Notes under the pieces: model-generated
What the model saw: only the letters and a program-made list of their open reading frames with translations
Told to the model about the DNA's origin: nothing
The model's database searches: none
Part shown: positions 14,791 through 61,302 of the stretch, piece by piece
Layout of the letters: every line of letters starts with the position of its first letter
Numbering within the stretch: the stretch's first letter is position 1
NCBI GenBank assembly: GCA_022071975.1
Contig: JAJVIO010000019.1
Span: 64,570-128,569, forward strand
Source: Planctomycetota bacterium
GTDB taxonomy: Bacteria; Planctomycetota; UBA8742; UBA2392
Length of the DNA stretch: 64,000 bases
Direction of reading: 5' to 3'
Program-made: the position numbers and the translations under genes

Positions 14791-15796
14791 GCAAACCCTG
14801 TCCAAAACCAGCGAGCTGACCCGGGCGCCATATTACAACCCATTCAGCCGCCTGATGAAACAGTGGTTCGGCGAGCCGGCGTACAAATTGACGCTGGATG
14901 CCGGTTTCACCTGCCCAAACATCGACGGCACCAAGGCCACGGGCGGCTGCACCTTCTGCGACAACGTCAGCTTCAGCCCGGCCCTGCGCACCGGCGTGAC
15001 ACGCATCGCCGAACAACTTGAGCAGGGCAAAGTCTTCTACCACGACCGCTTCAACGCCCGCATTTTCCTGGCCTATTTCCAGACTTTCACCAACACCTAC
15101 GCGAAGCTGGAACGGTTGAAGGCCCTTTATGACGAGGCCTTGGACGTGCCGGACATCGTGGGCATCTCAATTGGCACGCGGCCGGACTGCATCGACGCAG
15201 AGAAGCTGAAGCTGATCCAGGCCTACGCAGACGGCAGCGCCGAAGCGTGGCAGCGAAAGCTGGCCGAAGGCCGCACCCGCCTGGAGCGCCCCTTCGTGTG
15301 CGTCGAGTACGGCCTGCAGACTGTCCACGACGCCACGGCGGAGTACGTCAACCGTGCACACACCCACGCCGAGACGGTGGCGGCCGTTGAGCTTACCCGC
15401 GCTATCGCCCCGGACGCCCACCTGTGCCTGCACCTGATCAGCGGCCTGCCCGGCGAGACCGACGAGATGATCCACCAGACCATCGAGGAATGCGCGCGCC
15501 TGCGGCCGGACAGCATCAAGTTCCATCACCTGTACGTGTACGAGAACACGGTGATGGCGCGGCAGTACGAAGCCGGCGAGTTCGAGGTGCCCAGCCTGGA
15601 GCGGCACGTGCGCCTTGCCGCTGACTGCCTGGAACGCATGCCGCCCGACACCTGGGTACAGCGCCTGGTGGGGGAAGTCAGCAGCGGAGGCGTGATTGCG
15701 CCGCAGTGGGGTAAAACCAAGCTGCAGATTTACAACCTGATTTCCGATGAGCTCAAGCGCCGCGGCACCCACCAGGGCGCGCGCTGGCGCGCCTGA
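14789..15796 (+). CDS. Radical SAM protein, TIGR01212 (YhcC) family
   Basis: ..KLTLDAGFTCPNIDGTKATGGCTFCDN.. is the family's N-terminal signature. The start at 14789 gives a typical leader of ~30 aa. Confidence 0.8.
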   Translation: MQTLSKTSELTRAPYYNPFSRLMKQWFGEPAYKLTLDAGFTCPNIDGTKATGGCTFCDNVSFSPALRTGVTRIAEQLEQGKVFYHDRFNARIFLAYFQTFTNTYAKLERLKALYDEALDVPDIVGISIGTRPDCIDAEKLKLIQAYADGSAEAWQRKLAEGRTRLERPFVCVEYGLQTVHDATAEYVNRAHTHAETVAAVELTRAIAPDAHLCLHLISGLPGETDEMIHQTIEECARLRPDSIKFHHLYVYENTVMARQYEAGEFEVPSLERHVRLAADCLERMPPDTWVQRLVGEVSSGGVIAPQWGKTKLQIYNLISDELKRRGTHQGARWRA

Positions 15797-15933
15797 ATTT
15801 TGGATTTTGGATTGGCCGGGCGTGCGGGAAGCAGCCACCACAGACGGGCGCAAACATGAACGAGCCATCCGACCTGAGCGCTAACGCCACCCAATCCAAG
15901 TCAATCCAAAATCCAGAATCCAAAGTCCAAAAT
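15797..15933 (+). repeat. Heptad-periodic hairpin H1 (ATTTTGG units / TCCAAAA units)
   Basis: 5' arm ATTTTGGATTTTGGATTGG (15797-15815) starts directly after the radical-SAM TGA. 3' arm CCAATCCAAGTCAATCCAAAATCCAGAATCCAAAGTCCAAAAT (15891-15933). The lolD ATG (15856) lies in the loop. Confidence 0.75.
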
Positions 15934-23218: not shown

Positions 23219-23326
23219 GCCTGAATTGTAGCAGCCGGATTCAACCGGGTCCAAGACCCCAAATCGTTGACGTGAAGGGGTCCAAGAGGCAAAAGCGTGG
23301 TCCCCGCTGCATCCACGGAGGACCGC

Positions 23327-24457
23327 ATGCGCGAAACACCGCTTCGGCAAGAGCACGAGAAACTCGGCGCCCGCATGGTTGATTTCGCCGGCTGGTACAT
23401 GCCGGTCACCTACACCAACATCAAGGAAGAGCACGTCCGCGTACGGACCAAGGTGGGCCTGTTCGACGTGTCCCACATGGGGCGCTACTGGATCGGCGGG
23501 CGCGACCACATCAAGCTCACCGACCGCATCATCACCAACAGCCGCGCGACCATGAAGCCGGGCCAGATCCGCTACAGCCTGATCCTCAACGGCCAGGGCG
23601 GCATCCTCGACGACGTGCTGGTCTACAGCATGGGTGACCAGGGCACCTTGCTGGTGGTCAACGCCGGCAACCGCCAGGTGATCTGGGACTGGATCGCCCG
23701 CGAGCGCAAGGGCTTCGTCGTTGACGTCACCGACATGAGCAACGACTACGCCATGATCGCCATGCAGGGGCCGGAAAGCGTCGCGCTGCTGAACAAGATC
23801 AGCGACCTCGACACCAAGGCACTCAAGTACTACCACCTCACCCGCAGCACCGTACTCGGCGAGCCCGAAGTAATCGTCTCGCGCACCGGCTACACCGGCG
23901 AAGACGGCTTTGAATTGATCATGCCCACCAACAAGGCCGTCCACTTCTGGAGCGAGCTGATGAACGTGGGCAAGCCGCAGGGTGTTGGACCCGCCGGCCT
24001 GGGCTGCCGCGACACCCTGCGTCTTGAGGCCGGCATGCCGCTGCACGGCCACGAGATCAGCGACACCATCAACCCGCTGGAAGCCGGCCTGGATTGGGCC
24101 GTGAAGCTGGACAAGGAAGACTTCATCGGCAAGCAGGCCACCCTGGACCTGAAGGAAAAGGGGCTGACCCAGAAGCTGGTGGGACTGCACATCGCCGGCA
24201 AGCGCATCCCTCGACAGGACCAGGAAGTAATTCGCGACGGCAAGGTTGTCGGCAAGGTCTGCAGCGGCACCAAGGCGCCCTGGCTGGACGAGATCATCGC
24301 CACGGCCTACGTGCCGGCCAACGCCACCGCCATCGGCACCACCTACCACGTGGACTTCCCGGCCAAGGGCACGCGGGCCGTGAAGCCGGGCGAAACCACC
24401 ATGCAGACCGCCTTGGTGGTGCCGCTGCCGTTCTACAAGCGGCCGGGGAAGAAGTAG
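23327..24457 (+). CDS. gcvT: Glycine cleavage system aminomethyltransferase T
   Basis: MRETPLRQEHEKLGARMVDFAGWYMPV.., ..GLFDVSHMG.., ..RTGYTGEDGFEL... Confidence 0.9.
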   Translation: MRETPLRQEHEKLGARMVDFAGWYMPVTYTNIKEEHVRVRTKVGLFDVSHMGRYWIGGRDHIKLTDRIITNSRATMKPGQIRYSLILNGQGGILDDVLVYSMGDQGTLLVVNAGNRQVIWDWIARERKGFVVDVTDMSNDYAMIAMQGPESVALLNKISDLDTKALKYYHLTRSTVLGEPEVIVSRTGYTGEDGFELIMPTNKAVHFWSELMNVGKPQGVGPAGLGCRDTLRLEAGMPLHGHEISDTINPLEAGLDWAVKLDKEDFIGKQATLDLKEKGLTQKLVGLHIAGKRIPRQDQEVIRDGKVVGKVCSGTKAPWLDEIIATAYVPANATAIGTTYHVDFPAKGTRAVKPGETTMQTALVVPLPFYKRPGKK

Positions 24458-24461
24458 TTTT

Positions 24462-24535
24462 CAGGCGGCAGGCAGCAGGCGGCAGTCAAGCAACACACGT
24501 AGTTTCTGCCGCCTGCTAACTGCCGCCTGCCGCCT
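24462..24535 (+). repeat. Heptad-periodic hairpin H2 (CAGGCGG/CAGGCAG units)
   Basis: 5' arm CAGGCGGCAGGCAGCAGGCGGCAG (24462-24485), 20-nt loop, 3' arm CTGCCGCCTGCTAACTGCCGCCTGCCGCCT (24506-24535). Confidence 0.8.
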
Positions 24536-24586
24536 CAAACAGAAGTGACAACCATTCAGCGCAGGGCACACAGTAAGGAAAATCCT

Positions 24587-24985
24587 ATGGCTCGACCCAA
24601 AAACGTTCGCTACCTGGAGTCCCATGAGTGGGGCCGCCTCGAGAGCGATGGCACCATCACCATCGGCATCACCGACTTCGCCGTGGACCAGCTCAATGAC
24701 CTGACCTTCGTCGATCTGCCGGAAGTGGGCGACACGGTCACCAAGGGTGAGCCCTTCGGCGAAATCGAAAGCGTGAAGGCTGTAAGCGACTTGATCAGCC
24801 CCGTCAGCGGCGAGATCGTGGCCGTGCACGAAGACGTGGACGGCGACGACTTCAGCGCCCTGAAGACCGACGCCTTCGGCAAGGGCTGGCTGATCAAGGT
24901 AAAGCCCGACAACGCTGACGAGCTGAATGAAGGCACCAAGGACCTCGCCGCCTACGAAAAGCAGCTCGAGGAAGAAGCCCACTAA
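24587..24985 (+). CDS. gcvH: Glycine cleavage system H protein
   Basis: ..YLESHEWGRLE.., lipoyl-Lys motif ..GEIESVKAVSDL... Confidence 0.9.
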   Translation: MARPKNVRYLESHEWGRLESDGTITIGITDFAVDQLNDLTFVDLPEVGDTVTKGEPFGEIESVKAVSDLISPVSGEIVAVHEDVDGDDFSALKTDAFGKGWLIKVKPDNADELNEGTKDLAAYEKQLEEEAH

Positions 24986-25067
24986 CTCAAAATGAAAAAT
25001 GCAAAATTCATAATTGCCCCCGCCGGGCGCACCAATTTTGAATTTTGAATTTTGCATTCTGAATTCC
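24986..25067 (+). repeat. Heptad-periodic hairpin H3 (AT-rich; CAAAATG / GAATTTT units)
   Basis: Arms 24986-25016 and 25033-25067. I count 26 of 31 positions complementary. Loop is cccccgccgggcgcac. Confidence 0.85.
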
Positions 25068-25077
25068 AAGGACTCCC

Positions 25078-26448
25078 ATGCCGTTCATCCAGCACACTGC
25101 CGAAGACACCGCCGCGATGCTTAAAGCCATTGGCGCCAAAAGCATCGACGACCTCTACGTTGACATCCCGAAGGACATCCGGGTCAAGCCTGACGGCGAC
25201 AAGGTCAAGCTGAACCCCAGCATGGGCGAGCTCGAGGTCACTCGTCACATCAACGCGCTTCTGGCCAAGACCAAAAACGCCGGCGACTACGCCTTCTTCC
25301 GTGGCGCCGGCATCTACAACCACCACGTCAGCACACTGACCGACCACATCGCGCTGTATGACGGCAACTTCATCACCGCCTACACGCCGTACCAGCCGGA
25401 GTGCAGCCAGGGCACCCTCACCAGCGTGTTTGAGTTCCAGAGCTGCATCGCGACCCTGACGGGCTTCGAGGTCAGCAACGCCGGCATGTACGACGGGGCC
25501 AGCGCACTGGCCGAGGCCGTGCTGATGGGCTACCGCCTCACGGCCGACAACTTCCGCAAGGAAACCCGCGAAACCGTGGTGCTGGCCGGCGCCATCCACC
25601 CCGAGTACGCGGCCACGGTCAAAACCTATTGCGAGACCACCGGCCTCAAGCTGGTGCAGGTCGGAGCCGGCAAGGACGGCCGCGTGGACGCCGCAGCGCT
25701 GCAGGCGGCACTCACACGCGAAGCGGCCGTGGTGGCAATCCAGTCGCCCAACTTCTTCGGCGTGATCGAAGACGTGGAAGCGCTGGTGAAGCAGGCTCAC
25801 GACGCTGAGACCATGATCGTGCAGGTAATCGGCGAGCCGGTCAGTCTCTCGCTGCTCCAGACGCCCGCCGAGGCCGGCATCGACATCTGCGTGGGCGAAG
25901 GCCAGGCCATCGGCAACCACATGTTCATGGGCGGACCGGCATTCGGCTTCTTCGCCAGCCGCAAGGACTACGTGCGCAAGATGCCCGGCCGCATCGTCAG
26001 CGAGACGACGGACAAGGACGGCAAGCGCGCGTTTGCGCTGGCGCTGGCCACGCGCGAGCAGCACATCCGGCGCGAGAAGGCCACCAGCAACATCTGCACC
26101 AACCAGGCCCTGTGCGCCCTGCGCGCGCTGATCCAGCTGGCGGCCTGGGGCAAGGGCGGCTTCACCGAGCTCGGCCGCCAGATCGTCAGCAAGACTCAGT
26201 ATGCGCTGAAGACTCTGGGTGCTGTGAAGGGCGTCGAGCTGCCGCACCAGGGCAGCCCGGTGTTCAACGAGTTCGTGATCCGCACCAAGCCGGGTCTCGA
26301 CGCCAAGCTGCAAGCCCAAGGCATCATCGGCGGCCTGCCCCTCGAAAGCGTAAGCATGGGCCCGGCCGGCGACTACCTGGTAGCAATCACCGAAATGACC
26401 ACCAAGGAAGAAATCGACAAGTACGCCAAGGCATTGAGTCAGGCGTGA
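25078..26448 (+). CDS. gcvPA: Glycine dehydrogenase (decarboxylating) subunit 1
   Basis: MPFIQHTAEDTAAMLKAIG.., ..YTPYQPE.SQG.L.., 456 aa. Matches the split P-protein alpha subunit. Confidence 0.9.
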   Translation: MPFIQHTAEDTAAMLKAIGAKSIDDLYVDIPKDIRVKPDGDKVKLNPSMGELEVTRHINALLAKTKNAGDYAFFRGAGIYNHHVSTLTDHIALYDGNFITAYTPYQPECSQGTLTSVFEFQSCIATLTGFEVSNAGMYDGASALAEAVLMGYRLTADNFRKETRETVVLAGAIHPEYAATVKTYCETTGLKLVQVGAGKDGRVDAAALQAALTREAAVVAIQSPNFFGVIEDVEALVKQAHDAETMIVQVIGEPVSLSLLQTPAEAGIDICVGEGQAIGNHMFMGGPAFGFFASRKDYVRKMPGRIVSETTDKDGKRAFALALATREQHIRREKATSNICTNQALCALRALIQLAAWGKGGFTELGRQIVSKTQYALKTLGAVKGVELPHQGSPVFNEFVIRTKPGLDAKLQAQGIIGGLPLESVSMGPAGDYLVAITEMTTKEEIDKYAKALSQA

Positions 26449-26940
26449 AGCGCGAGGCTGGAGGCGTGAGCTTACAGCAACTGCGGGAAATGACATGGCG
26501 ACGTCGGACCAATCAGGATACCGCAACTTGCGTGTCTGGCAGCGAGCCATGGACTGCGCAGAGATGGTTCACACGGTCACCAGGGGCTTCCCCAAGGACG
26601 AGCTCTACGGACTTACCAGCCAGATCAGGCGAGCGGCGAACTCAGTTCCGCTCAACATAGCCGAGGGCTACAAGCGTCGGCGCTACAAGCGGAAGTACCT
26701 GCAAGCGCTGACTTACGCCAGCGGGTCCGAAGGAGAAGTAGAGACGGCAATTGAGCTGGCGCAGCGGTTCAAGTACATCGCGCCGAACCAGGCGGGCGAG
26801 ATGGCAGCGCAGTATGACGAAGTAGGCCGTATGTTGAGCGCTTTGATAGCGCGAATCGAAGCCGACATTGAAAAGGAGGAGCGCGAAGGCGGCGGCAAGC
26901 GTGAGTAGTTTCTCACGCCTCACGCCCAACGCCTCACGCC
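26442..26940 (+). repeat. Heptad-periodic hairpin H6 (AGGCGTG / CTCACGC units) whose 'loop' contains a whole gene
   Basis: 5' arm GGCGTGAAGCGCGAGGCTGGAGGCGTGAG (26442-26470, includes the gcvPA TGA). 3' arm CTCACGCCTCACGCCCAACGCCTCACGCC (26912-26940), ending 8 nt before the gcvPB ATG. Confidence 0.75.
26495..26908 (+). CDS. Four-helix-bundle protein (TIGR02436 / '23S rRNA intervening sequence protein' family)
   Basis: ..YRNLRVWQRAMD.., ..QIRRAANSVPLNIAEGY.., ..ASGSEGEVETAIELA.. are the characteristic family motifs. 137 aa. Confidence 0.85.
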   Translation: MATSDQSGYRNLRVWQRAMDCAEMVHTVTRGFPKDELYGLTSQIRRAANSVPLNIAEGYKRRRYKRKYLQALTYASGSEGEVETAIELAQRFKYIAPNQAGEMAAQYDEVGRMLSALIARIEADIEKEEREGGGKRE

Positions 26941-26948
26941 AAACATTC

Positions 26949-28448
26949 ATGACGAACATTCCCGCCAATCCCGCCGAGCAGCTGCTGTTCGAGATCAGCA
27001 AGCCCGGGCGTCGCTGTGTGACTTTCCCGGCGCTGGACGTTCCCGAGGTTGACCCCGTGGACGCCCTCAAAGGCGCGAAGCTGCGCTCTGAGCCCGCGCG
27101 CCTGCCCGAAATCGGCGAGCTTGACCTGGTGCGCCACTTCAAGAACCTGGCCCAGAAGAACTACAGCGTGGACAAGAACTTCTACCCGCTGGGCAGTTGC
27201 ACCATGAAGTACAACCCCAAGATCAACGTCACCCTGCTGGCCCAGCCCGGCTACACCAAGGCCCACCCCTACCTGCCCGAGCAGGACATCCAGGGCCACC
27301 TCGAGCTGATGTACAACCTCGAGCACTACCTGCGCGAAGTCAGCGGCCTTGACGAAGTCACCCTGCAGCCCGCCGCCGGCGCCCATGGCGAGCTCACCGG
27401 CGTGATGTGCATCAAGGCCTACTTTGAGGACAAGGGCGAAGGCGCACAGCGCACGGAGTTCCTGATCCCCAGCGCCGCCCACGGCACCAACCCGGCGACC
27501 GCAGCCATGGCCGGCTTCAAGGCCGTCACGCTGAAGGAAGCCGCCAACGGCAACATCGACCTCGAAGAGCTTAGAAAAAAGGTCGGCCCCCAGACGGCCG
27601 GCATGATGATCACCAACCCCAGCACGCTGGGCATCCTCGAGCCGAAGATGCGCGAGATCGCCGAGATCCTGCACGGCGTTGGCGCGCAACTGTACATGGA
27701 CGGCGCGAACATGAACGCGATCAGCGGCATCGTGCAGCCCGGCGACTACGGCATCGACGTCATGCATTTCAATCTGCACAAGACGTTCAGCGTGCCCCAC
27801 GGCGGCGGCGGCCCCGGCGCCGGGCCGATCGCCGTGCGCAAGCACCTGGCCCCCTTCCTGCCCAAGCCGCGCATCAAGAAGAACGCCGACGGCAGCTTCG
27901 CGTTCGACTACGACCGGCCGAAGTCGGTCGGCAAGGTGCGCAGCTTCTTCGGCAATTTCGGCGCGCTGGTGATGGCCTACATCTACATGACGCAGCTCGG
28001 CCGTGAGGGCGTGCGGCGCATGAGCCAGTACGCGGTTTTGTCCGCGAACTACATAAGGGTGATGCTGCGCGACTACTACCACGTGCACCACGACCGCACC
28101 AACGCCCACGAGTGCGTGTTCACGGACCTGAAGCAGGACAAGGAAAACGGCGTGCACACGCTGGACATCGCCAAGCGGCTGATCGACTACGGCATCCACC
28201 CCATGACCATCTACTTCCCGCTGCCCCAGAACACCGGCGGCCACGGCGCCATGATGGTCGAGCCGACCGAGACGGAGAGCAAGGAAAGCATCGACTACTT
28301 CATCGAGTGCATGAAGAAGATCGCGCAGGAGTGCAAGGACAACCCGGAGCTGGTAAAGACCGCGCCGCACACGACGCCGGTGAAGAAAGTGGACGAAAAG
28401 ACCGCCAGCACCAACCCGCAGCTCTACTGCCCGATGTGCCTTGGTTAG
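26949..28448 (+). CDS. gcvPB: Glycine dehydrogenase (decarboxylating) subunit 2
   Basis: ..LGSCTMKYNP.., ..HFNLHKTFSVPHGGGGPG.. (PLP Lys region). Start ATG 26949 (MTNIPANPAEQ..). Confidence 0.9.
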   Translation: MTNIPANPAEQLLFEISKPGRRCVTFPALDVPEVDPVDALKGAKLRSEPARLPEIGELDLVRHFKNLAQKNYSVDKNFYPLGSCTMKYNPKINVTLLAQPGYTKAHPYLPEQDIQGHLELMYNLEHYLREVSGLDEVTLQPAAGAHGELTGVMCIKAYFEDKGEGAQRTEFLIPSAAHGTNPATAAMAGFKAVTLKEAANGNIDLEELRKKVGPQTAGMMITNPSTLGILEPKMREIAEILHGVGAQLYMDGANMNAISGIVQPGDYGIDVMHFNLHKTFSVPHGGGGPGAGPIAVRKHLAPFLPKPRIKKNADGSFAFDYDRPKSVGKVRSFFGNFGALVMAYIYMTQLGREGVRRMSQYAVLSANYIRVMLRDYYHVHHDRTNAHECVFTDLKQDKENGVHTLDIAKRLIDYGIHPMTIYFPLPQNTGGHGAMMVEPTETESKESIDYFIECMKKIAQECKDNPELVKTAPHTTPVKKVDEKTASTNPQLYCPMCLG

Positions 28449-28598
28449 GTTGTAGCGCTTAGGTTGCAGGTTGTAGGGAGGACGTTTGAATCTTGAGCGT
28501 CACGCGTTGATCACCCGGATCGCAGGATAGCTCGCGGTCTAAAACAACCCACGCGATGCTTGATCCCTATCACCTACAACCTATTACCTACTACCTGA
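28446..28598 (+). repeat. Heptad-periodic hairpin H5 (TAGGTTG / ACCTACn units) with ~85-nt loop
   Basis: 5' arm TAGGTTGTAGCGCTTAGGTTGCAGGTTGTAGGG (28446-28478, starts with the gcvPB TAG). 3' arm CCCTATCACCTACAACCTATTACCTACTACCTGA (28565-28598). Confidence 0.7.
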
Positions 28599-28630
28599 GT
28601 CAATTCTCACCCAGTCCAGAGAGCGCTCCC

Positions 28631-29815
28631 ATGGAACTCGTGCCATCCCATCGCGTCGCCAGCATCGGCGCTTACGCGTTTGCCGCCGTTGACGAAAAAG
28701 TAGCCGAGCTGAAAGCCAGGGGCATCACGCCCATCGACTTCGGCGTCGGCGACTACCAGGACCCCACGCCGCGGCTGATCCGCCAGGCCTGCAAAAAAGC
28801 CATCGACCAGCACGCCACCGACGGCTACCCCAGCTACATCGGCTCGCTGCCGTACCGCGAGGCGATCGCCGCCTGGCTGAAGCGCCGCTTCGGCGTCAGC
28901 CTTGACCCCAAGACCCAGATCACCAGCACCATCGGCAGCAAGGAGGGCATCTTCAACTTCGCCGAGGCATTCGTGAACCCCGGCGAATACGTGATCTGCC
29001 CCAGCCCCGGCTATCCGCCTTACAAGCGCGGCACCCTGTTCGCCGAGGGCGTGGCGTACTTCGTGGCCGTCACCCACAAGAACAAGTGCAAGTACGACTT
29101 CAAAAAGATCCCGCCCGAGGTCGCCGAGCGCGCGCGCATCATGTGGGTCACCACGCCCAGCAGCCCGCTGGGCTACGTGGCCGAGCTCGACTTCCTGAAA
29201 GCGGCCTACGAGTTCTGCCAGCAGCACGACATCATCCTCGCCAGCGACGAGGCGTACTCCGAGCTGTACTTCAAAGATCCGCCCCACAGCGCGCTGGAAG
29301 TCGCGGCTCAGAATAACTTCGACGGCGTGGTGCAGTTCCACTCGCTGTCAAAACGGAGCATTATGACCGGCTGGCGCGTGGGCTGGGTGGCCGGCGACAA
29401 GCGCGCTATCGACGCGTTCAAGAAGGTCAAGACCAACATCGACAGCGGCACGCCCAACTTCATCCAGGACGCCGCCATTGCGGCACTGGCCGACGAAAAG
29501 CACGTGCAGAAGCTGCGCAGCATGGTCAAGCGCAAGCGCAACATCATCTGCACCGCGCTGCGCAAGGCCGGCCTGAAGAACTGCAAGAACCCCGCCGGCC
29601 TGTACCTGTGGCAGAAAGCCCCGGAGGGCATGCGCGGCGAGGAATTCGCCACCCTGCTGATTGAGAAGTGCCACGTGGTGACCACGCCCGGCGAATGGCT
29701 GAGCGACGAGGTGGACGGAGAGAACCCCGGCGCCGGCCACGTGCGCTTCGCCTTCGTGCCGCCCATGGCCGAGGTGCAGCAGGCCGCCGAGCGCATCGCG
29801 CAGTTGAAGCTATAG
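28631..29815 (+). CDS. Class I/II aminotransferase (LL-diaminopimelate aminotransferase-like)
   Basis: ..ITPIDFGVGDYQDPTP.., ..HSLSKRSIMTGWRVGW.. (PLP Lys), 394 aa. Confidence 0.7.
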   Translation: MELVPSHRVASIGAYAFAAVDEKVAELKARGITPIDFGVGDYQDPTPRLIRQACKKAIDQHATDGYPSYIGSLPYREAIAAWLKRRFGVSLDPKTQITSTIGSKEGIFNFAEAFVNPGEYVICPSPGYPPYKRGTLFAEGVAYFVAVTHKNKCKYDFKKIPPEVAERARIMWVTTPSSPLGYVAELDFLKAAYEFCQQHDIILASDEAYSELYFKDPPHSALEVAAQNNFDGVVQFHSLSKRSIMTGWRVGWVAGDKRAIDAFKKVKTNIDSGTPNFIQDAAIAALADEKHVQKLRSMVKRKRNIICTALRKAGLKNCKNPAGLYLWQKAPEGMRGEEFATLLIEKCHVVTTPGEWLSDEVDGENPGAGHVRFAFVPPMAEVQQAAERIAQLKL

Positions 29816-31553: not shown

Positions 31554-32752
31554 TGAGCGACACTTACCGCGACACCAGCCGGCTGTTCACCATCCGCCTG
31601 CCCAAAGGCTTTGAGCGTGACCCCCGCGCCAAGAGCCTTGTGTTCCGGAACCCGGAAATCGACGGCACGGTTACCGTAAGCTGCCTGCGCCACCGCACTG
31701 GCGACGCCGACGTCAACCTGTTCGACGCGCTGCCCAGCCGCGAGGCCATGGGCAACATCCAGCGCGGCCAGCGCGACGGCATGAACTTCGTGTATGGCGA
31801 CTACGAGGGCGAGCTGCAGAACCGCCCCGAATACTGGCGCTGGTGGACCCTGCAGCGCGGCCCGGTCGGCATCGTGGTCAGCTTCAATGGCGCGCCGGAA
31901 ACTGCAGACGACCCCGAGCCCGTCGATCAGTTCGTGGCCGGCATACGCATCACCGAGCACCCCCCGCTTTCCGTGGAAGAATTCACGGTGCTTGGTGCCG
32001 AGGTGTACGCCCGTGCATTGGGCAAGGACAAACCCGCCATCAACAAGCCCCTTGAGCTCAACACCGGCAACAACTCCACCCTGCGCCTCGACAACGCCTA
32101 CATCAGCTACCTCGATGAATGGGACGTGAACCACCAGGCCGACCCGCAACCCTTGCTGCAGCAGTGGTTCGAACGCCTGTGGGGTGAACACGTCGAAGTG
32201 CTGGGCCCCTTCGAAGACGTGCGCTCGCTGATCTACCCCATCGTCAAGCCCTGGGGATTCGGCCGCGAAACCAAGGTGCCCGTGCTGCGCCGCAGCATCA
32301 TCGACGGCGAGCTGGAACTGCTGGCGGCCGTGGACACCGGCCGCACGCTGCGCTTCCTGAGCAGTGAAGACCTCGCGCGCTGGGAAGGGGTGAGCGAAGA
32401 GGACGTGTTTTTCTACGGCCGCGAAAATCTTTCCGCGCTGTCGCAGGACATGCAGTTGCAGGCCCTGGCGGATGCGGACGGCACGCCTCGGGCGGTGATC
32501 GTCGCCAGCGGGGACAGCTACGACGCTTCGCGCCTGATGCTGCCGGAGCTGTACAACAAGCTGTCCGAGGTGCTGGGCCCCAACCTGCTGGTAGGCGTGC
32601 CCAACCGCGACTTCATGATCGTGCTGACAGAGGACGACCATGAGCTGGTGGAGAACGTAAGCAACCAGGTAAAGATCGACGCCGAAACCCGCCCCTACTC
32701 CATCAGCGGCAAGCTCTACCGCCTGACCAAAGACGGCGTCCAGCCCAGGTGA
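31553..32752 (+). CDS. Hypothetical protein (possibly DUF1444-like C-terminal half)
   Basis: 399-aa ORF with normal GC3 bias, translationally coupled to mcsB (TGATG). No motif that I can name with confidence. Confidence 0.5.
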   Translation: MSDTYRDTSRLFTIRLPKGFERDPRAKSLVFRNPEIDGTVTVSCLRHRTGDADVNLFDALPSREAMGNIQRGQRDGMNFVYGDYEGELQNRPEYWRWWTLQRGPVGIVVSFNGAPETADDPEPVDQFVAGIRITEHPPLSVEEFTVLGAEVYARALGKDKPAINKPLELNTGNNSTLRLDNAYISYLDEWDVNHQADPQPLLQQWFERLWGEHVEVLGPFEDVRSLIYPIVKPWGFGRETKVPVLRRSIIDGELELLAAVDTGRTLRFLSSEDLARWEGVSEEDVFFYGRENLSALSQDMQLQALADADGTPRAVIVASGDSYDASRLMLPELYNKLSEVLGPNLLVGVPNRDFMIVLTEDDHELVENVSNQVKIDAETRPYSISGKLYRLTKDGVQPR

Positions 32753-32830
32753 CAGGTTTCAGGTTTCAGGTTTCTGTGTTCACGGTATTGTGTTGCCCCT
32801 GAAACCTGGAACCTGACACCTGAAACCTGA
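32753..32830 (+). repeat. Heptad-periodic hairpin H4 (CAGGTTT / CCTGAAA units)
   Basis: 5' arm CAGGTTTCAGGTTTCAGGTTTCTGTGTTCAC starts directly after TGA 32750-32752. 3' arm CCTGAAACCTGGAACCTGACACCTGAAACCTGA ends 4 nt before ATG 32835. 19 of 21 outer positions pair. Confidence 0.85.
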
Positions 32831-32834
32831 TCTC

Positions 32835-33818
32835 ATGACGAACCCACTTGATGTTGTTGCCATCGGCAATGCGCTGGTTGACGTGCTGGCGCACTCGGAC
32901 GACGAATTCCTCACCGCGCGCGGTATCGAAAAAGGCTCCATGCGCCTGATCAACGCGCAGCAGGCCGAAGAGCTTTACGGCCAGATGGGTCCCGGCGTGG
33001 AATGCTCCGGCGGCAGCGCGGCCAACACCGTGGCCGGCATCGCTTCGCTCGGAGGCAAGGCCGGCTTCATCGGCAAGGTCGCCGGCGACCAGCTGGGCAA
33101 AATCTTCAAACACGACATCACGGCGCTCGGGGTCGAGTTCAACAGCGCCCCGACCTTCGACACCAGCCCCACCGGGCGCTGCCTGGTGTTCGTCACCCCC
33201 GACGCCCAGCGCACCATGCAGACCTTCCTGGGCAGCGCCGGCGAAGTCAGCCCCGCCGACGTGGACGCCGGGCTGATCCAGCGCGCGCAGGTGACCTACT
33301 TCGAGGGCTACCTGTTCGACGCGCCGCCCGCCAAACAGGCCTACCTGAAGGCCGCCGAGATCGCCCACGCGGCCGGCAAGAAAGTCAGCCTCACCCTCAG
33401 CGACAAGTTCTGCGTGGACCGCCACCGCGCCGAGTTCAAAGACCTGGTGCACGGCCACATCGACGTGCTGTTCGCCAACGAGCTGGAGATCATCGCGCTG
33501 TACGAGACCGGCGGCTTCGACGAGGCCGTTGCGGCCGTGCGCGGCAAGTGCGATATCGCGGTGCTGACCCGCAGTGAAAAGGGCGCGCTGATCGTGACGC
33601 CGGAGCAGACCATCGAGGTGAAGGCTCAGCCGGTCGCCAAGGTCGAGGACACCACCGGCGCCGGCGACTTGTTCGCCGCGGGCTTCCTGTACGGCTACAC
33701 TCACGGCAAGCCGCTGGCCGAATGCGGCAGGATCGCAGCTATCTGCGCGGCCGAGATCATCAGCCACGTTGGCGCCCGGCCGGACACCAACCTGGCGGAG
33801 CTGGTGGCGCGCACGTAG
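32835..33818 (+). CDS. PfkB-family kinase (adenosine kinase-like)
   Basis: ..GGSAANT.., ..DTTGAGDLFAAGFLYG.. (PfkB signature 2), 327 aa. Confidence 0.8.
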   Translation: MTNPLDVVAIGNALVDVLAHSDDEFLTARGIEKGSMRLINAQQAEELYGQMGPGVECSGGSAANTVAGIASLGGKAGFIGKVAGDQLGKIFKHDITALGVEFNSAPTFDTSPTGRCLVFVTPDAQRTMQTFLGSAGEVSPADVDAGLIQRAQVTYFEGYLFDAPPAKQAYLKAAEIAHAAGKKVSLTLSDKFCVDRHRAEFKDLVHGHIDVLFANELEIIALYETGGFDEAVAAVRGKCDIAVLTRSEKGALIVTPEQTIEVKAQPVAKVEDTTGAGDLFAAGFLYGYTHGKPLAECGRIAAICAAEIISHVGARPDTNLAELVART

Positions 33819-33916
33819 GGGCGGGCCCATGTGCCCGCCCGTTGGCACTTCCGTCGGCAGCATCTCCTGCCTACACTCCGCGAGCAAAGCGGGCGGCCAC
33901 GCGGGGCCGCCCCTAC
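33815..33916. repeat. GC-rich palindromic element, copy b, with ~12-bp terminal inverted repeats
   Basis: GTAGGGGCGGGCC (33815-33827) versus GGCCGCCCCTAC (33905-33916). Internal hairpin GGGCGGGC-ccatgt-GCCCGCCC. Contains the TAG stop of the kinase gene. Confidence 0.7.
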
Positions 33917-33925
33917 GGGGGCGCC

Positions 33926-35308
33926 ATGCTCGGGGTCTTTGAACCAACCTGGATTCCCATGGCCGTGCTGGGGGTGATCATGCTGATCACCTACCTGTTC
34001 ATTGCGTTCGAGAAGCTGCACAAGAGCGTGTGCGCCATCGTGGGTGCTATCGCGGCCGTGGTGGCCGCCATGGCTTTCGGCCTGTTCGGCAAGTCGGGCT
34101 ATCACGAAGTGCACGAGATCATCGGGCACGACCTGAACATCCTGGGCGTCATCATCGGCACCAGCATCCTTGTGGATACCGTGGGCGGCAGCGGGCTGTT
34201 CCACTTCATCGGCATCCGCGTCGTGAAGCTGACCGGCGGCGAGCCGAAACGGCTGTTCCTGTTCGTGTGCATCCTGACTTTCCTGTTTGTCAGCCTGCTG
34301 ACCATCGCGCCGGGCACGCTTTTAATGGCCTCGCTGGCGCTGGTGATCTGCCGCACCCTGGGCTACCACCCCAAACCCTACCTGATCGCCGTCGCCATCG
34401 TGGCCAACAGCGCGGCGCTGACCACCTTCAGCAGCGGCATCGCCACACTGATGATCGGCACGGCGGCCGAGATCCCCTACTTCCAGTTCTTCATCGGCAG
34501 CACGCCGCTGGCGTTCGCCACGGCCGCGGTGGCGTTCCTGGTGCTGGTCAAGCTGTACGGCAGGAAGCTGCTGGAAGACGCGGCCAAGGCCGGCGACCCC
34601 GCCACCCTGAAGCAGAAGGTGGCCGGCTTCGACGAGTGGGCGATGGTGAAAGACCGCCGCGTGTTCCGGCGCAGCGCGGGCGTGCTGGGCGCCACGGTGG
34701 TGGGCTTCGCCACCGCGCAGGCCCTGCACGTCGGGCTTGATTTCGTCGCCATGGCGGGCGGCATGGCGGCCCTGTTGTTCTGCGCCGGCGACCCGGAGCA
34801 GGCGATCAAGAAGGTGAAGTGGCCGGTGATCCTGTTCTTCGTGGGCCTGTTCGTGATCATCGGCGCGGTGAAGGCCACGGGTCTGCTGGCGGCCACGGCC
34901 GACGCGCTGGTCAGCCTGGGCGGCGGCAGCGGCACGGTGCTGGTGCTGATCATCGGACTGTTCGTGTTGGGCTTCAGCGGCTTCATCGACAACATCCCCC
35001 TGGCGGCAACCATGATCCCGGTGCTGGACCCGATCGCCGCGGACAACCCGGCCCTGGCGCCGGCCCTGTTCTGGGTGCTGATCGCGGCCGCCAACCTGGG
35101 CGGCAACAGCACGCCGATTGGCAGCGTCAGCAGCGTGATCGCCCTGCACGCGCTGGAAAGCGACCGCGGCGAAAAAGTGGGTTGGGGCGAGTACATGAAG
35201 GCGGGCGGCCTGATTCTGGCCGTGCAGTCCGTGCTGGTACTCGGCTACGTCCTGTTGATGATGAACCTGGGCTGGTTCCCGGACCTGCCTAAGTACGTGA
35301 AAGGATAG
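33926..35308 (+). CDS. ArsB/NhaD (CitMHS-like) family permease
   Basis: About 12 TM helices. ..LLTIAPGTLLMASLALV.., ..DNIPLAATMIPVL.., ..AANLGGNSTPIGS.. are typical of the ArsB/NhaD permease superfamily. Confidence 0.7.
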   Translation: MLGVFEPTWIPMAVLGVIMLITYLFIAFEKLHKSVCAIVGAIAAVVAAMAFGLFGKSGYHEVHEIIGHDLNILGVIIGTSILVDTVGGSGLFHFIGIRVVKLTGGEPKRLFLFVCILTFLFVSLLTIAPGTLLMASLALVICRTLGYHPKPYLIAVAIVANSAALTTFSSGIATLMIGTAAEIPYFQFFIGSTPLAFATAAVAFLVLVKLYGRKLLEDAAKAGDPATLKQKVAGFDEWAMVKDRRVFRRSAGVLGATVVGFATAQALHVGLDFVAMAGGMAALLFCAGDPEQAIKKVKWPVILFFVGLFVIIGAVKATGLLAATADALVSLGGGSGTVLVLIIGLFVLGFSGFIDNIPLAATMIPVLDPIAADNPALAPALFWVLIAAANLGGNSTPIGSVSSVIALHALESDRGEKVGWGEYMKAGGLILAVQSVLVLGYVLLMMNLGWFPDLPKYVKG

Positions 35309-40838: not shown

Positions 40839-40999
40839 ATTAGCCCCTTCCCGCCTTCGCCAAGGCTACGGCGGGCAAGCCCCGCCCCGCCTGCGCTAAA
40901 GCTTCGGCGGGCAGGCGAAACGGGCGAAACACGGTAACACCGGCCTAGGCCCTGTAAAGTACGGGCACAGGCTGGTTTGTGACCAAAAACCATGCCCAG

Positions 41000-41128
41000 C
41001 CCGCCACGGGAGTGGCGGGAATCACCTGTGCCAATCGTCCACCTGAGCCCGAGAACATCAAAGCCCAGATGCTTCCAAAATCAGACGGGACCAATGACCC
41101 ACCCAATCCCCGCCACTTCCGTGGCGGG
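41000..41128. repeat. Inverted pair of 20-nt palindromes CCCGCCAC-N4-GTGGCGGG bracketing ~89 nt
   Basis: 41000-41019 (loop GGGA) and 41109-41128 (loop TTCC). Flanks are also inverted copies (CCCAGCCCGCCACGGRAGTGGCGGGRAT). A third related hairpin is at 50307-50327. Confidence 0.65.
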
Positions 41129-41160
41129 CTGGGGCGCAACATCGCTTTCATCGCTACATT

Positions 41161-41844
41161 GTGCCGATGCCAGTGTACGAGTTGCCTGAGGAAATTGCGT
41201 TTCCGGACCCTGCTTTGGCGGAGCCTGATGGCCTGCTGGCTGTGGGCGGCGACCTTTCCGCTGAGCGTCTGCTTACGGCCTACGCGCTGGGCATCTTTCC
41301 CTGGCCGCACCGGGGCTGGCCGATGCTTTGGTTCAGCCCGGACCCGCGCATGGTGCTGTTTCCCGCCGAGCTGAAGCTGTCACGCAGCCTGCGCCAGAGC
41401 ATCCGCAAAGGCCGTTACGAAATCCGCTTCGACACCGACTTCGCGGGCGTGATCGCCAATTGCGCCAAAGTAAAGCGCCCGGGCCAGCGCGGCACCTGGA
41501 TCAGCAAGCCCATGGTCAAGGCCTACACCGAGCTGCACAAGCTCGGTTTCGCCCATTGCGCAGAAGCCTGGCTTGAGGGCAAGCTGGTGGGCGGCGTGTA
41601 CGGCGTGTCGTTGGGCGCCGCCTACTTCGGCGAATCCATGTTCGCCCTTGAGCCCGACGCCAGCAAGGTCGCCTTCGCCGCCCTGGTGGGCAAGCTGAAA
41701 GAGTGGGAGTTTCATTTCATCGACGCCCAGGTTCACACCGCGCACCTGGAGCGCTTCGGCGCGCGTCTGATCCCGCGCGTTGAATACCTGCAACGGCTGG
41801 AGAAAGCCCTGCAAGTTCCCACCCGCCGCGGCCCTTGGATCTAA
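41161..41844 (+). CDS. aat: Leucyl/phenylalanyl-tRNA--protein transferase
   Basis: ..FPDPALAEPDGLLAVGGDLS.ERLL.AY..GIFPW.., ..GESMF... 227 aa. Confidence 0.85.
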   Translation: MPMPVYELPEEIAFPDPALAEPDGLLAVGGDLSAERLLTAYALGIFPWPHRGWPMLWFSPDPRMVLFPAELKLSRSLRQSIRKGRYEIRFDTDFAGVIANCAKVKRPGQRGTWISKPMVKAYTELHKLGFAHCAEAWLEGKLVGGVYGVSLGAAYFGESMFALEPDASKVAFAALVGKLKEWEFHFIDAQVHTAHLERFGARLIPRVEYLQRLEKALQVPTRRGPWI

Positions 41845-42006
41845 GAGCCTGTCTGGATACCCAGAGTGAGACTGATTCGGAGCGCCGGGCGAGTGATGCG
41901 AGGCGCCCGACTGAGGCGTAGCCGCTGCTACGCCGCAGGGAGGGCAACGAAGCAGCGCGAAGCCCGCCGCCCGAATCAGACCGCGAGTGGGTTTCCAGAC
42001 AGGCTC
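41845..42006. mobile_element. MITE-like structured element (about 160 bp) between convergent stop codons
   Basis: Terminal inverted repeats AGCCTGTCTGGA..TCCAGACAGGCT plus inner CTGATTCGG..CCGAATCAG. Nested hairpin GGCGTAGC-cgct-GCTACGCC. Flanked by CTAAG on both sides. Confidence 0.55.
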
Positions 42007-42533
42007 TAAGGCTTGAACACACTTACACTGCAGACGTTGTCAAATGGCAGGCCGGCCGTGCGGTTGGCTGTGCGCACGGATTCGGCGTCCGGCGCCGCGT
42101 AGAGGCACAGCATGCGCTTGCGGTCCTTCGCGAAATAGCTGCGCAGGAACTTCACGCGGTGCTGCTGCAGGCACCAGGCGAAGGCGTCTTCCTGGGCCTG
42201 CACGTCGTCGAACGCAACCGGCTGCTTCCAGCTGCGTGTCACAAGTACCAGCTCACCGGATTCAGGCTGAACCAGGTCGGGCTCCGGCCCGTGCATCGTG
42301 GCGCTGTACACATGGCTGAAGGGCGCGTCGCCGTTGCGATTGGCGGTGCGCACGGATTCAGCGTCAGGTGCGCGGAACACGCAATCCAGCCGGTGACCAT
42401 CACGGGACAGGTAGGCGCGAACGTGTTCCACGCGATAGATGTCCGCGCAGCCCCGCAGCCGCGCGCGCAGGGCCCGGATGTCGTCAAAGTTTACTGCCTG
42501 CGGCAGTTCGCGCTCGACGATGACCCACTCCAT
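42006..42533 (-). CDS. Tandem DUF4242 (SCO4226-like, putative nickel-binding) protein
   Basis: Two repeats: ..RVEHVRAYLSRDGHRLDCVFRAPDAESVRTANRNGDAPF.. and ..RVKFLRSYFAKDRKRMLCLYAAPDAESVRTANRTAGLPF.. ATG overlaps the regulator's TGA. Confidence 0.65.
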   Translation of the reverse strand: MEWVIVERELPQAVNFDDIRALRARLRGCADIYRVEHVRAYLSRDGHRLDCVFRAPDAESVRTANRNGDAPFSHVYSATMHGPEPDLVQPESGELVLVTRSWKQPVAFDDVQAQEDAFAWCLQQHRVKFLRSYFAKDRKRMLCLYAAPDAESVRTANRTAGLPFDNVCSVSVFKP

Positions 42534-61222: not shown

Positions 61223-61302
61223 AGGTCGGAGGTAAGGGTACTGTCCCCGCGCTGACAGGCCGTGGCGTATCCCCGGCCTATGACTTCTAATCTCTGCCCT
61301 CT
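61205..61302 (+). repeat. Heptad-periodic hairpin H8 (CAGAGGT units / CTnnnCT units)
   Basis: 5' arm CAGAGGTCAGAGGCTAGAGGTCGGAGGTAAGGG (61205-61237) includes the last 5 codons and the TAG of the upstream gene. 3' arm CCCCGGCCTATGACTTCTAATCTCTGCCCTCT (61271-61302) abuts ATG 61303. Confidence 0.7.

Follow-up and report, generated by a model that had tools for sequence, protein, structure and literature searches.

A four-helix-bundle gene cassette, probably of the rRNA intervening-sequence type, bracketed by inverted heptad repeats, in the glycine-cleavage operon of a planctomycete

Introduction

What kind of element separates gcvPA from gcvPB, the genes for the two subunits of glycine dehydrogenase, in the glycine-cleavage operon of a Planctomycetota bacterium, and how does such an element persist inside an operon? 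The question is raised by a 64,000 nt stretch of contig JAJVIO010000019.1 (assembly GCA_022071975.1, positions 64,570 to 128,569), referred to below as the window, in which a small open reading frame (ORF) lies in the loop of a long hairpin exactly between these two genes. An earlier note on this DNA assigned the ORF to a four-helix-bundle (4HB) protein family named after the intervening sequences (IVS) of 23S rRNA and likened the whole element to such an IVS. It left two readings: either hairpins of this type are cassettes that can carry a 4HB gene, or 4HB genes home into stems which are already in place.

The parallel with the rRNA elements has turned out to be closer than claimed, as the IVS of Coxiella shares with the window element its stem length, its heptamers and its S23p ORF (PMC4990558). 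As an individual, the window element is of a kind already known, an IVS-like 4HB stem-loop, here located in an mRNA operon. The packaging of the gene between two heptad arms is the rule for the 4HB family across many phyla, mostly within ordinary operons, and this general rule appears to be previously undescribed: no publication tying 4HB genes generally to heptad inverted repeats, or describing such cassettes in mRNA operons, was found in the library that we consulted, which is incomplete, and database curators may have noted the association elsewhere.

The cassette at the gcvPA-gcvPB junction

All features described here are on the plus strand of the window. gcvPA (glycine dehydrogenase subunit 1, 25078-26448; from the ORF list, with PF02347 matched on identical contigs) ends with a TGA at 26446-26448. 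This stop and the last codons of the gene are located within the first heptad of the 5' arm (26442-26470, GGCGTGAAGCGCGAGGCTGGAGGCGTGAG), which was found by the inverted-repeat scan, is G-rich and consists of an initial G and the four heptads GCGTGAA, GCGCGAG, GCTGGAG and GCGTGAG. A leader of 24 nt, delimited by alignment (26471-26494), separates the arm from the ATG of the 4HB gene (26495-26908, 137 aa). The C-rich 3' arm (26912-26940, CTCACGCCTCACGCCCAACGCCTCACGCC), recovered by the same scan, is made of CTCACGC, CTCACGC, CCAACGC and CTCACGC with a final C, and the ATG of gcvPB (glycine dehydrogenase subunit 2, 26949-28448; from the ORF list, 93-95% identical to its relatives) is found at 26949, 8 nt past this arm. 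Checked in the sequence, these positions of the arms, the TGA, the ORF and the ATG are the same as those given in the earlier note, and the ORF does carry the family motifs quoted there.

The two arms are 29 nt each, 79% complementary (23 Watson-Crick pairs) and 441 nt apart. Both have a period of 7, with 4.1 copies in the 3' arm according to the repeat scan. Terminal inverted repeats of this size around an ORF match the long stem (about 28 bp) of IVS-type elements. The element is situated between gcvPA and gcvPB and not in helix 25 or 45 of a 23S rRNA gene, and Rfam at gathering thresholds returned nothing in the window, rRNA included. No promoter-like or terminator-like site was found on the plus strand between 23000 and 29000. 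The pattern GGCGTGAGGCGTGAG occurs above chance level only at the gcvPA-gcvPB locus.

The closest genomes are those of uncultured Planctomycetota, including L001 (JAOSKM010000002; gcvPA protein 96% identical). A motif TTACWGCAAC...GGAA in the leader is common, by alignment, to the cassettes of the window, L001 and another relative, L003. The identical context and cassette recur in at least 15 independent metagenome contigs, so the cassette is not an assembly artefact.

The 4HB protein

The family assignment made in the earlier note holds. The 137-aa ORF matches the profile hidden Markov models PF05635 (E=4.8e-34, 117.2 bits against a cut-off of 33.8) and TIGR02436 (E=4.9e-33, 113.6 bits against a cut-off of 24), known as "23S rRNA intervening sequence protein" or S23p. 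An AlphaFold2 model built with 50 homologues has four long helices (pLDDT 93.5). The best Foldseek match of this model is XCC0516 (2GSC; TM-score 0.92-0.94, root mean square deviation 1.0 A), which is also matched by sequence (E=1.4e-18), followed by BT_0352 of the "S23 ribosomal protein family" (2RLD; TM-score 0.81-0.89) and then by 4DWL and 8UB7, structures of Avd, a protein of diversity-generating retroelements (DGR). There is also a match to phrog_3206 at 1e-11. The two DGR-Avd models gave scores below their cut-offs (NF033474, 35 bits vs 80; PF22296, 28.7 bits vs 40), and no PADLOC defence-system model matched this protein or the GxxExxY protein described below. Proteins of the family are basic (median pI 9.15). 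The five chains (A-E) in 2GSC and 2RLD, together with published statements, suggest that the protein is probably an Avd-like, basic pentamer.

The nearest homologue beyond a cluster of 97-100% identical copies is just 62-63% identical. The ratio of nonsynonymous (dN) to synonymous (dS) substitution rates of the 4HB gene, calculated for three orthologous pairs (window vs the 97%-identical variant L161, 0.10; L001 vs L003; L010 vs L011), is 0.06-0.10 and equals that of gcvPA. The gene thus encodes a protein under purifying selection. In these respects the window element is an ordinary member of its protein family.

Predicted pairing of the arms and its conservation

The terminal stem is present in both the minimum free energy (MFE) and the centroid fold of the 511-nt RNA. 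Folded with a short loop, the arms alone give -45.9 kcal/mol (z=-6.4), and none of 200 shuffled sequences was as good. A local alternative hairpin described in the earlier note was confirmed at 26899-26918: the last codons of the ORF, GCGTGAG, can pair with the first 3'-arm unit, CTCACGC, around the TAG stop and TTT. It is kept in all strain copies and absent in L001 and L003, and the long-range stem is preferred over it in the MFE fold.

Strain variants provide a fine-scale record of the stem. The A at 26449 of the window forms an A:C mismatch; most other contigs have G at this position, including ten other metagenome copies with an identical protein (L163-L172), and the mismatch of the 5' arm is thereby mended to a G:C pair (GTGAAGCG to GTGAGGCG). 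In the 97%-identical variant (L161, L162) a second A:C mismatch is mended and one G:C pair is broken.

Over longer distances the arms co-vary, a test set in the earlier note: orthologous cassettes keep pairing while their heptads change. Those that carry a gene, with four different heptads among them, all form long stems of -40 to -64 kcal/mol. The window unit GCGTGAG differs in one base from GCGGGAG of L001 and L003. The same one-base change recurs in several units of the 5' arm (two of four in the window) and is mirrored in the 3' units, CTCACGC vs CTCCCGN, a pattern which we read as concerted, compensatory change.

Inverted heptads around 4HB genes across the family

The earlier note asked whether other 4HB genes are bracketed by heptad-periodic inverted repeats, and most of those surveyed are. 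Two independent sets of 80 loci each were assembled from contigs representing one genome per species, set 1 seeded with the window subfamily and set 2 with XCC0516. They cover Planctomycetota, Acidobacteriota, Bacteroidota, Proteobacteria, Verrucomicrobiota, Chloroflexota, Firmicutes, candidate phyla and more. For scoring, the 120 nt preceding the start of each gene were compared with the 120 nt following its stop, and the best inverted repeat without gaps gave the score; values of at least 12 were counted as positive. RNAduplex energies of these flanks were too noisy, and the ungapped score was used instead.

Positive scores were obtained for 51 of 78 4HB genes in set 1 and for 48 of 76 in set 2, that is for 99 of 154 genes in total (64%). 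Three kinds of control gave rates of 1.8-5%. When the upstream flank was compared with the downstream flank of another locus, 25 of 468 and 12 of 456 comparisons were positive, as were the flanks of 7 of the 393 other ORFs (100 codons or longer) at these loci.

The arms of these 99 cassettes are periodic, with identities of 0.70 and 0.68 at lag 7 and of 0.72 at lag 14, vs 0.23-0.36 at other lags; the best lag is 7 in 82 cassettes and 8 in 14. The median arm is 30 nt long, corresponding to about 4.3 units, four units being the commonest number. The 5' arm and the start codon are separated by a median of 24 nt, the stop codon and the 3' arm by 11 nt, and the two arms by 411 nt. With values of 29, 24, 3 and 441 nt, the window element is typical.

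In 86 of 99 cassettes G outnumbers C in the upstream arm (p=2e-14). In 75 of 99 cases the 80 nt upstream contain the end of a same-strand ORF of 120 codons or more, and in 10 the end of an opposite-strand one. Downstream, 53 cassettes have a neighbour on their own strand and 17 have one on the opposite strand, while 29 have none. Since both the G/C asymmetry and the co-orientation follow the direction of transcription, they point to a strand-specific role, either at the level of RNA or coupled to transcription.

There is a hint that the heptads share an AG-centred motif. S-A-G-T-N-G-S at first reached 4.74 bits vs 3.17±0.13, and the signal is weak after duplicate removal: 3.86 vs 3.47±0.16 (null maximum 3.90) in set 2 alone and 3.51 vs 3.01±0.13 in the union of the sets.

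Several further observations were made in the surveyed loci. Period-8 arms form a minority, e.g., in L107, L138 and L141 of set 1 and in several loci of set 2 (GAAGGAGT, AGACGCGG). The sole relative found on a viral contig, L326 (IMGVR_UViG_3300044998_001332, around 1450-1900), has GGCTGGA upstream and TCCAGCC downstream of its 4HB gene; as a single case it says little about vectors. A conserved 23S motif, GCGTAATAGCTCAC, which lies near helix 45, was present in none of 325 loci, although this is a crude check.

Turnover of cassettes at the same junction

The gcvPA-gcvPB spacers with and without an insert, a comparison suggested in the earlier note, were examined in 15 related genomes (L001-L015). 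The junction is occupied by a 4HB gene, by a gene of another family, by an empty hairpin or by a plain spacer. 4HB genes are found in L001 and L003 (arm unit GGAGGCG), L009 (GGGAGTC) and L014 (CTAGGCG). In L007 the position is taken by a GxxExxY nuclease gene (5366-5860; TIGR04256, 5.9e-41; PF13366, PDDEXK_3) lying in an inverted repeat of its own that is not heptad-periodic. L010, L011 and L013 have an empty heptad hairpin with the unit CAGATGA, and L005, L006 and L008 have a short hairpin only. The spacer is 130-170 nt long with other inverted repeats in L012 and L015, and just 38-45 nt long and plain in L002 and L004.

Comparison of the window with L001 shows how sharply the insert is delimited. 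The genes are 92-98% identical at the DNA level, and identity falls to 45-70% in 26430-26945; the drop coincides exactly with the cassette and with each intercistronic hairpin. For gcvPA of this pair, dS is 0.28 and dN/dS is 0.09, while synonymous sites of the two 4HB genes are saturated (dN 0.32). Saturation next to a gcvPA dS of 0.28 means that the window cassette is not an in-place descendant of the L001 cassette, and rapid divergence of the 4HB gene in place is ruled out on the same grounds. Judging from these rates, either the window or the L001 cassette has replaced the other, arms included, the exchange beginning within the final codons of gcvPA and ending shortly before the ATG of gcvPB. 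In L001, frameshifts are present in the junction 4HB gene (around 5421-5465) and in gcvPB (5853-6194); these could be pseudogenes, but sequencing or assembly errors in that metagenome-assembled genome (MAG) are more likely.

A decayed cassette is located downstream of gcvPB, at 28443-28595. Its arms (28443-28478, beginning with GGTTAGG and TTGTAGC, and 28564-28595, beginning with CCCTATC and ACCTACA) enclose a loop of about 85 nt, and 28502-28563 within this loop corresponds to the last 62 nt or so of a 4HB ORF including its TGA. The orthologous hairpin of L001 (7352-7825) has the same arms and contains a complete 4HB gene (TIGR02436, 2.3e-27). By this comparison the window hairpin is a deletion derivative of a 4HB cassette.

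Three of these observations bear on whether arms and gene form one cassette: the arms are swapped along with the gene at the same junction (window vs L001, L009 and L014), the GxxExxY gene of L007 brings non-heptad arms of its own, and the hairpin at 28443-28595 keeps the 3' tail of a deleted 4HB gene. Co-changing arms, L007 and the decayed cassette hence favour the first reading of the earlier note, arms and gene as a single cassette, and disfavour the second, homing of genes into pre-existing stems.

GxxExxY genes in the same niche

GxxExxY genes, which encode PD-(D/E)XK proteins, were found to have flanking inverted repeats in 22 of 60 cases vs 40 of 360 controls (11%) (L174-L244). The period of the arms is here about 8-10 nt, the unit is often CRCAAAG-like, and a signal at lag 7 is lacking. 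The MAG CAVOUU01 contains both types, a 4HB gene with CAGTTGC heptads (L160) and a GxxExxY gene with CCTTCGTG-type units (L190), and this contrast suggests that the type of repeat tends to follow the enclosed gene. As a counter-example, the octad GGAGACGC is present both in L138, with a 4HB gene, and in L203, with a GxxExxY gene.

Other hairpins in the window

The earlier note counted seven other heptad hairpins; we found six in the window, at 15793-15931, 24462-24539, 24984-25065, 28443-28595, 32746-32831 and around 61206-61300. In a stringent scan all heptad-periodic segments of the window proved to belong to inverted pairs as one of the arms. G outnumbers C in the upstream arm of five of these six hairpins, with a tie in the remaining one.

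Two of them are in the gcv operon upstream of gcvPA, and both were detected by the inverted-repeat and period scans. The spacer between gcvT (23297-24457) and gcvH (3' end at 24985) contains an empty heptad hairpin of the CAGGCGG type (24462-24539), just about 45-50% identical to L001 vs 92-98% for the flanking genes. The gcvH-gcvPA spacer contains an empty hairpin of the AAAATGA/AATTTTG type (24984-25065). A heptad hairpin is present in this spacer in the window and in 14 of 14 relatives looked at (L006 was left out), with lineage-specific heptads: AAAATGA, CAGGTTT, GGGGCTT, CAATGAA, GTCAGAA and others. Both hairpins are hypervariable, being 23-50% identical between the window and L001. Directly after the gcvH stop and before the heptad hairpin, most relatives (L001, L003-L005, L011 and L013-L015) have a short G+C-rich stem-loop, e.g., GGCGCGCACGGCGCGCC, which is absent in the window.

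Outside the operon, heptad hairpins are located at 15793-15931 (ATTTTGG), 32746-32831 (CAGGTTT) and around 61206-61300 (CAGAGGT types). The long inverted repeats (37-46 nt arms) and the 36-nt tandem repeat at 33805-33926, 40995-41133, 41841-42010 and 40842-40913, all located where the window is rich in G+C, lack heptad periodicity and look like repeats of another class.

Comparison with known systems

The closest known counterpart is the 23S IVS of Coxiella burnetii, in which a 28-bp stem of terminal inverted repeats surrounds an S23p (PF05635) ORF, the 5' part contains tandem heptamers GACAGAT in strain-variable copy number, and RNase III cuts the stem at the first repeat, as mapped by rapid amplification of cDNA ends and shown in vitro (PMC4990558). 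Like the S23p-type IVS of Coxiella, Leptospira and others, the window cassette places a PF05635 ORF in the loop of a stem of about 28 bp, has a size of about 430-500 nt and would be part of a host transcript. This transcript differs: it is that of a protein-coding operon, with the cassette in the gcvPA-gcvPB spacer and not in helix 25 or 45 of 23S rRNA. The window ORF is under purifying selection, in contrast to the Coxiella ORF, which was reported to be decaying and probably untranslated (PMC4990558). Excision by RNase III is experimental in Coxiella, whereas the window cassette is known from sequence. In terms of sequence-level features, the window element has every one of those of the Coxiella IVS except the host transcript.

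A second relevant body of work concerns bacterial heptamer repeats. Rehm et al. (2015) described GGGAATC heptamers of Xanthomonas, usually in four units, after stop codons, with their complement ahead of start codons; convergent inverted pairs number 70-75, the repeats are transcribed, and the heptamers were read as G-quadruplex (G4) formers, with G4 formed in vitro (PMC4692102). The window arms have the characteristics of this class with another unit, GCGTGAG, and L246, a Pseudoxanthomonas homologue of XCC0516, has GGGAAT-type heptads on its flanks. The known families (GGGAATC in Xanthomonas, GGGGAYT and the short tandemly repeated repetitive (STRR) sequences in Nostoc/Anabaena, TAACTGA in Beggiatoaceae) resemble the arms in having about four 7-nt units in intergenic positions between co-oriented genes. 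The STRR repeats of cyanobacteria were reportedly described by Mazel and colleagues in 1990. The Beggiatoaceae and cyanobacterial repeats are probably related phenomena, with the difference that the TAACTGA repeats are direct and the window arms inverted (PMC4679880). The heptamer papers proposed G-quadruplexes or sites for an unknown regulator and made no link to 4HB genes (PMC4692102, PMC4679880).

Avd shares with the 4HB proteins a homologous four-helix-bundle fold. It was described as a positively charged pentameric barrel "similar to S23 ribosomal proteins" which binds an RNA stem-loop encoded beside its own gene, and the 3' end of avd forms a long-range RNA duplex (bioRxiv 10.1101/2023.10.23.563531). 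As regards the DGR context of Avd, the long ORFs in 24000-29500 of the window all belong to gcv genes or to the gene that follows them (its ORF opens at 28556, with a likely start near 28631), although no reverse transcriptase model was searched, and a repeat scan of the whole window found no long direct repeats of the template/variable repeat kind.

Repetitive extragenic palindromes (REPs) and MITEs (miniature inverted-repeat transposable elements) have one sequence genome-wide and need a cognate transposase, either a REP-associated tyrosine transposase (RAYT) or that of an insertion sequence. With REPs, the bacterial interspersed mosaic elements (BIMEs) formed by them and MITEs, the cassettes share their nature of extragenic palindromes within operons, the existence of deletion derivatives and the patchy presence in relatives. 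They differ in that each 4HB locus has its own heptad; all seven window hairpins have different heptads, and no one sequence is found at many loci. TRAP and HutP are ring oligomers bound to several evenly spaced short single-stranded RNA motifs, and HutP reads UAG at a 4-nt spacing, equivalent to a period of 7. The likeness to 4HB cassettes (about four units per arm vs five chains in 2GSC and 2RLD, and the weak AG-centred heptad motif) is an analogy only, as the 4HB proteins have no homology to TRAP or HutP and their binding is conjectural.

Discussion

We consider it probable that the window element is an IVS-type 4HB cassette which resides in an mRNA operon, is co-transcribed with it and is looped out from the transcript. 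It comprises, in this order, a G-rich arm of about four heptads, a leader of about 24 nt, a PF05635 gene and, after a short gap, a C-rich arm complementary to the first and again about four heptads long, and it fits exactly between the gcvPA stop, in its first heptad, and the gcvPB start. Having no promoter or terminator of its own, it would be transcribed along with the gcv operon. In the transcript the arms would pair into an imperfect stem of about 29 bp, looping out the 441-nt insert and bringing the gcvPA stop near the gcvPB start. As in the homologous S23p-type IVS of 23S rRNA, this stem may be a substrate for RNase III, and cleavage would free the 4HB message and separate the flanking cistrons, so that insertion would cost the host little. 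For this cleavage step taken by itself, the analogy with rRNA carries us to roughly even odds. Arms and gene behave as a unit in inheritance, loss and exchange, with internal deletion giving rise to empty heptad hairpins. The 4HB protein most likely acts on nucleic acid and plausibly on its own flanking repeats.

A number of observations weigh against this picture. About a third of the surveyed 4HB genes are without detectable arms. Co-transcription with gcv, formation of the stem in vivo and its cleavage by RNase III are all inferred here. The antisense stem of the window is more stable than the sense one (-53.8 vs -45.9 kcal/mol); over the cassettes, sense minus antisense stability favours sense by 1.1-1.6 kcal/mol on average, a difference too small to interpret. 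Mismatches within arms give no signal in a wobble test (G:T vs A:C 40 vs 37 in one count and 87 vs 94 in the 99 cassettes), so that this test does not separate RNA from DNA function, and with no G:U preference and a stronger antisense stem, selection for a stem specifically in the sense RNA is not demonstrated. The stem carries 3x3 and 2x2 internal loops, which might lessen or redirect cutting by RNase III, and such cutting would end the translational coupling of gcvPA and gcvPB that the stem geometry suggests. Finally, neither a transposase or recombinase within or next to the cassettes nor a target-site duplication was observed, and the arm sequence is specific to each locus.

The geometry just mentioned lies at the root of one of two live rivals, both compatible with the IVS-type cassette. 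The hairpin may be an uncleaved regulatory structure of the host for translational coupling or insulation, with the 4HB gene as a tolerated passenger in its loop; in the coupling version, a ribosome ending at the gcvPA stop would melt the stem and free the region upstream of the gcvPB start. Loaded and empty hairpins indeed share their geometry, with the 5' arm at or just after a stop codon and the 3' arm directly ahead of the following start, cassettes have the orientation of the neighbouring genes, and the persistence of a heptad hairpin of whatever sequence in the gcvH-gcvPA spacer of the window and 14 relatives suggests that the structure itself is retained. We nevertheless regard this explanation as unlikely, though worth keeping in view. 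The plain gcvPA-gcvPB spacer of L002 and L004 indicates that the structure is dispensable there, the arms move with the gene instead of being fixed to the site, the homologous rRNA elements do get cleaved (PMC4990558), and the period of 7 nt is left unexplained. Alternatively, the element may be mobile at the level of DNA, with the arms serving as terminal inverted repeats or as a single-stranded hairpin or cruciform, the empty hairpins being MITE-like and the RNA stem a by-product. Replacement at one site with sharp boundaries and saturated dS would suit this well, as would the patchy presence in close relatives, the deletion derivative at 28443-28595, the lack of a G:U-over-A:C bias in the arms and the heptad arms of the viral-contig copy. 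It is a slightly fainter prospect for us, because no single sequence-specific transposase could recognise arms which differ from locus to locus, the lack of transposase, recombinase and target-site duplication applies here as well, and the tie of the G-rich/C-rich asymmetry to gene orientation, together with host co-orientation, speaks for a strand-specific process like transcription.

Two further explanations concern the arms as such. If the repeats were primarily G-quadruplex (and i-motif) tracts, as proposed for GGGAATC of Xanthomonas and GGGGAYT of Nostoc, their complementarity would be secondary. In its favour, such heptamers form G4 in vitro, preferentially come in four units and are placed with respect to ORFs as the arms are (PMC4692102); the GGGAAT-type heptads around the Pseudoxanthomonas 4HB gene and the G-rich nature of 5' arms agree with it too. 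However, runs of three or more G are missing from most heptads (CAGTTGC, GTAGCTA, AGTAAGT, AAAATGA), no run longer than GG occurs in the window arm, and it is the complementarity between the two arms of a cassette that is conserved from locus to locus, which makes G-quadruplexes very improbable as the main explanation. A chance meeting of two tandem repeats that have nothing to do with each other, next to an ordinary small gene, would be harder to dismiss from the window alone: 201 inverted-repeat pairs are listed in this G+C-rich sequence, and a 29-nt pair with 79% complementarity is by itself unexceptional among them. It is the periodicity, position, orthologues and family-wide statistics that set the cassette arms apart, and with the excess of arms over the controls and pairing kept as heptads change, chance is refuted and has a negligible probability.

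A bolder idea concerns the protein. 4HB rings could be the trans-acting partners of bacterial heptamer repeats, each binding its own four or five flanking heptads as RNA or single-stranded DNA. The repeat period that follows the gene family (7 nt with 4HB, 8-10 nt with GxxExxY), even within one MAG, the weak AG-centred motif, the commonness of four units and the basic character of the family are hints in this direction. We hold this idea to be rather doubtful. If true, the cassette would be a protein together with its cognate sites, comparable to Avd with its adjacent stem-loop or to HutP and TRAP with their periodic triplets, and the orphan heptad repeats and hairpins that number in the hundreds in genomes like those of Xanthomonas, Nostoc and planctomycetes would represent either cassettes in decay or additional sites for binding. 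They would then belong to a post-transcriptional network or a selfish propagation system that has been overlooked since the description of STRR.

Overall, the association of 4HB genes with inverted heptads links three literatures, those on rRNA intervening sequences, on bacterial heptamer repeats with their G-quadruplex claims and on Avd-like proteins. It suggests that many empty intergenic hairpins are relics of 4HB cassettes. For annotation, it defines a class of intercistronic elements with fast turnover, variable even where the genes of two genomes are 96% identical. The family PF05635/TIGR02436 is very large and without an assigned function (one search gave 230 homologues at E<=1e-10), and its name derives from a handful of rRNA intervening sequences; the family-wide rule described here makes the function of this orphan family testable.

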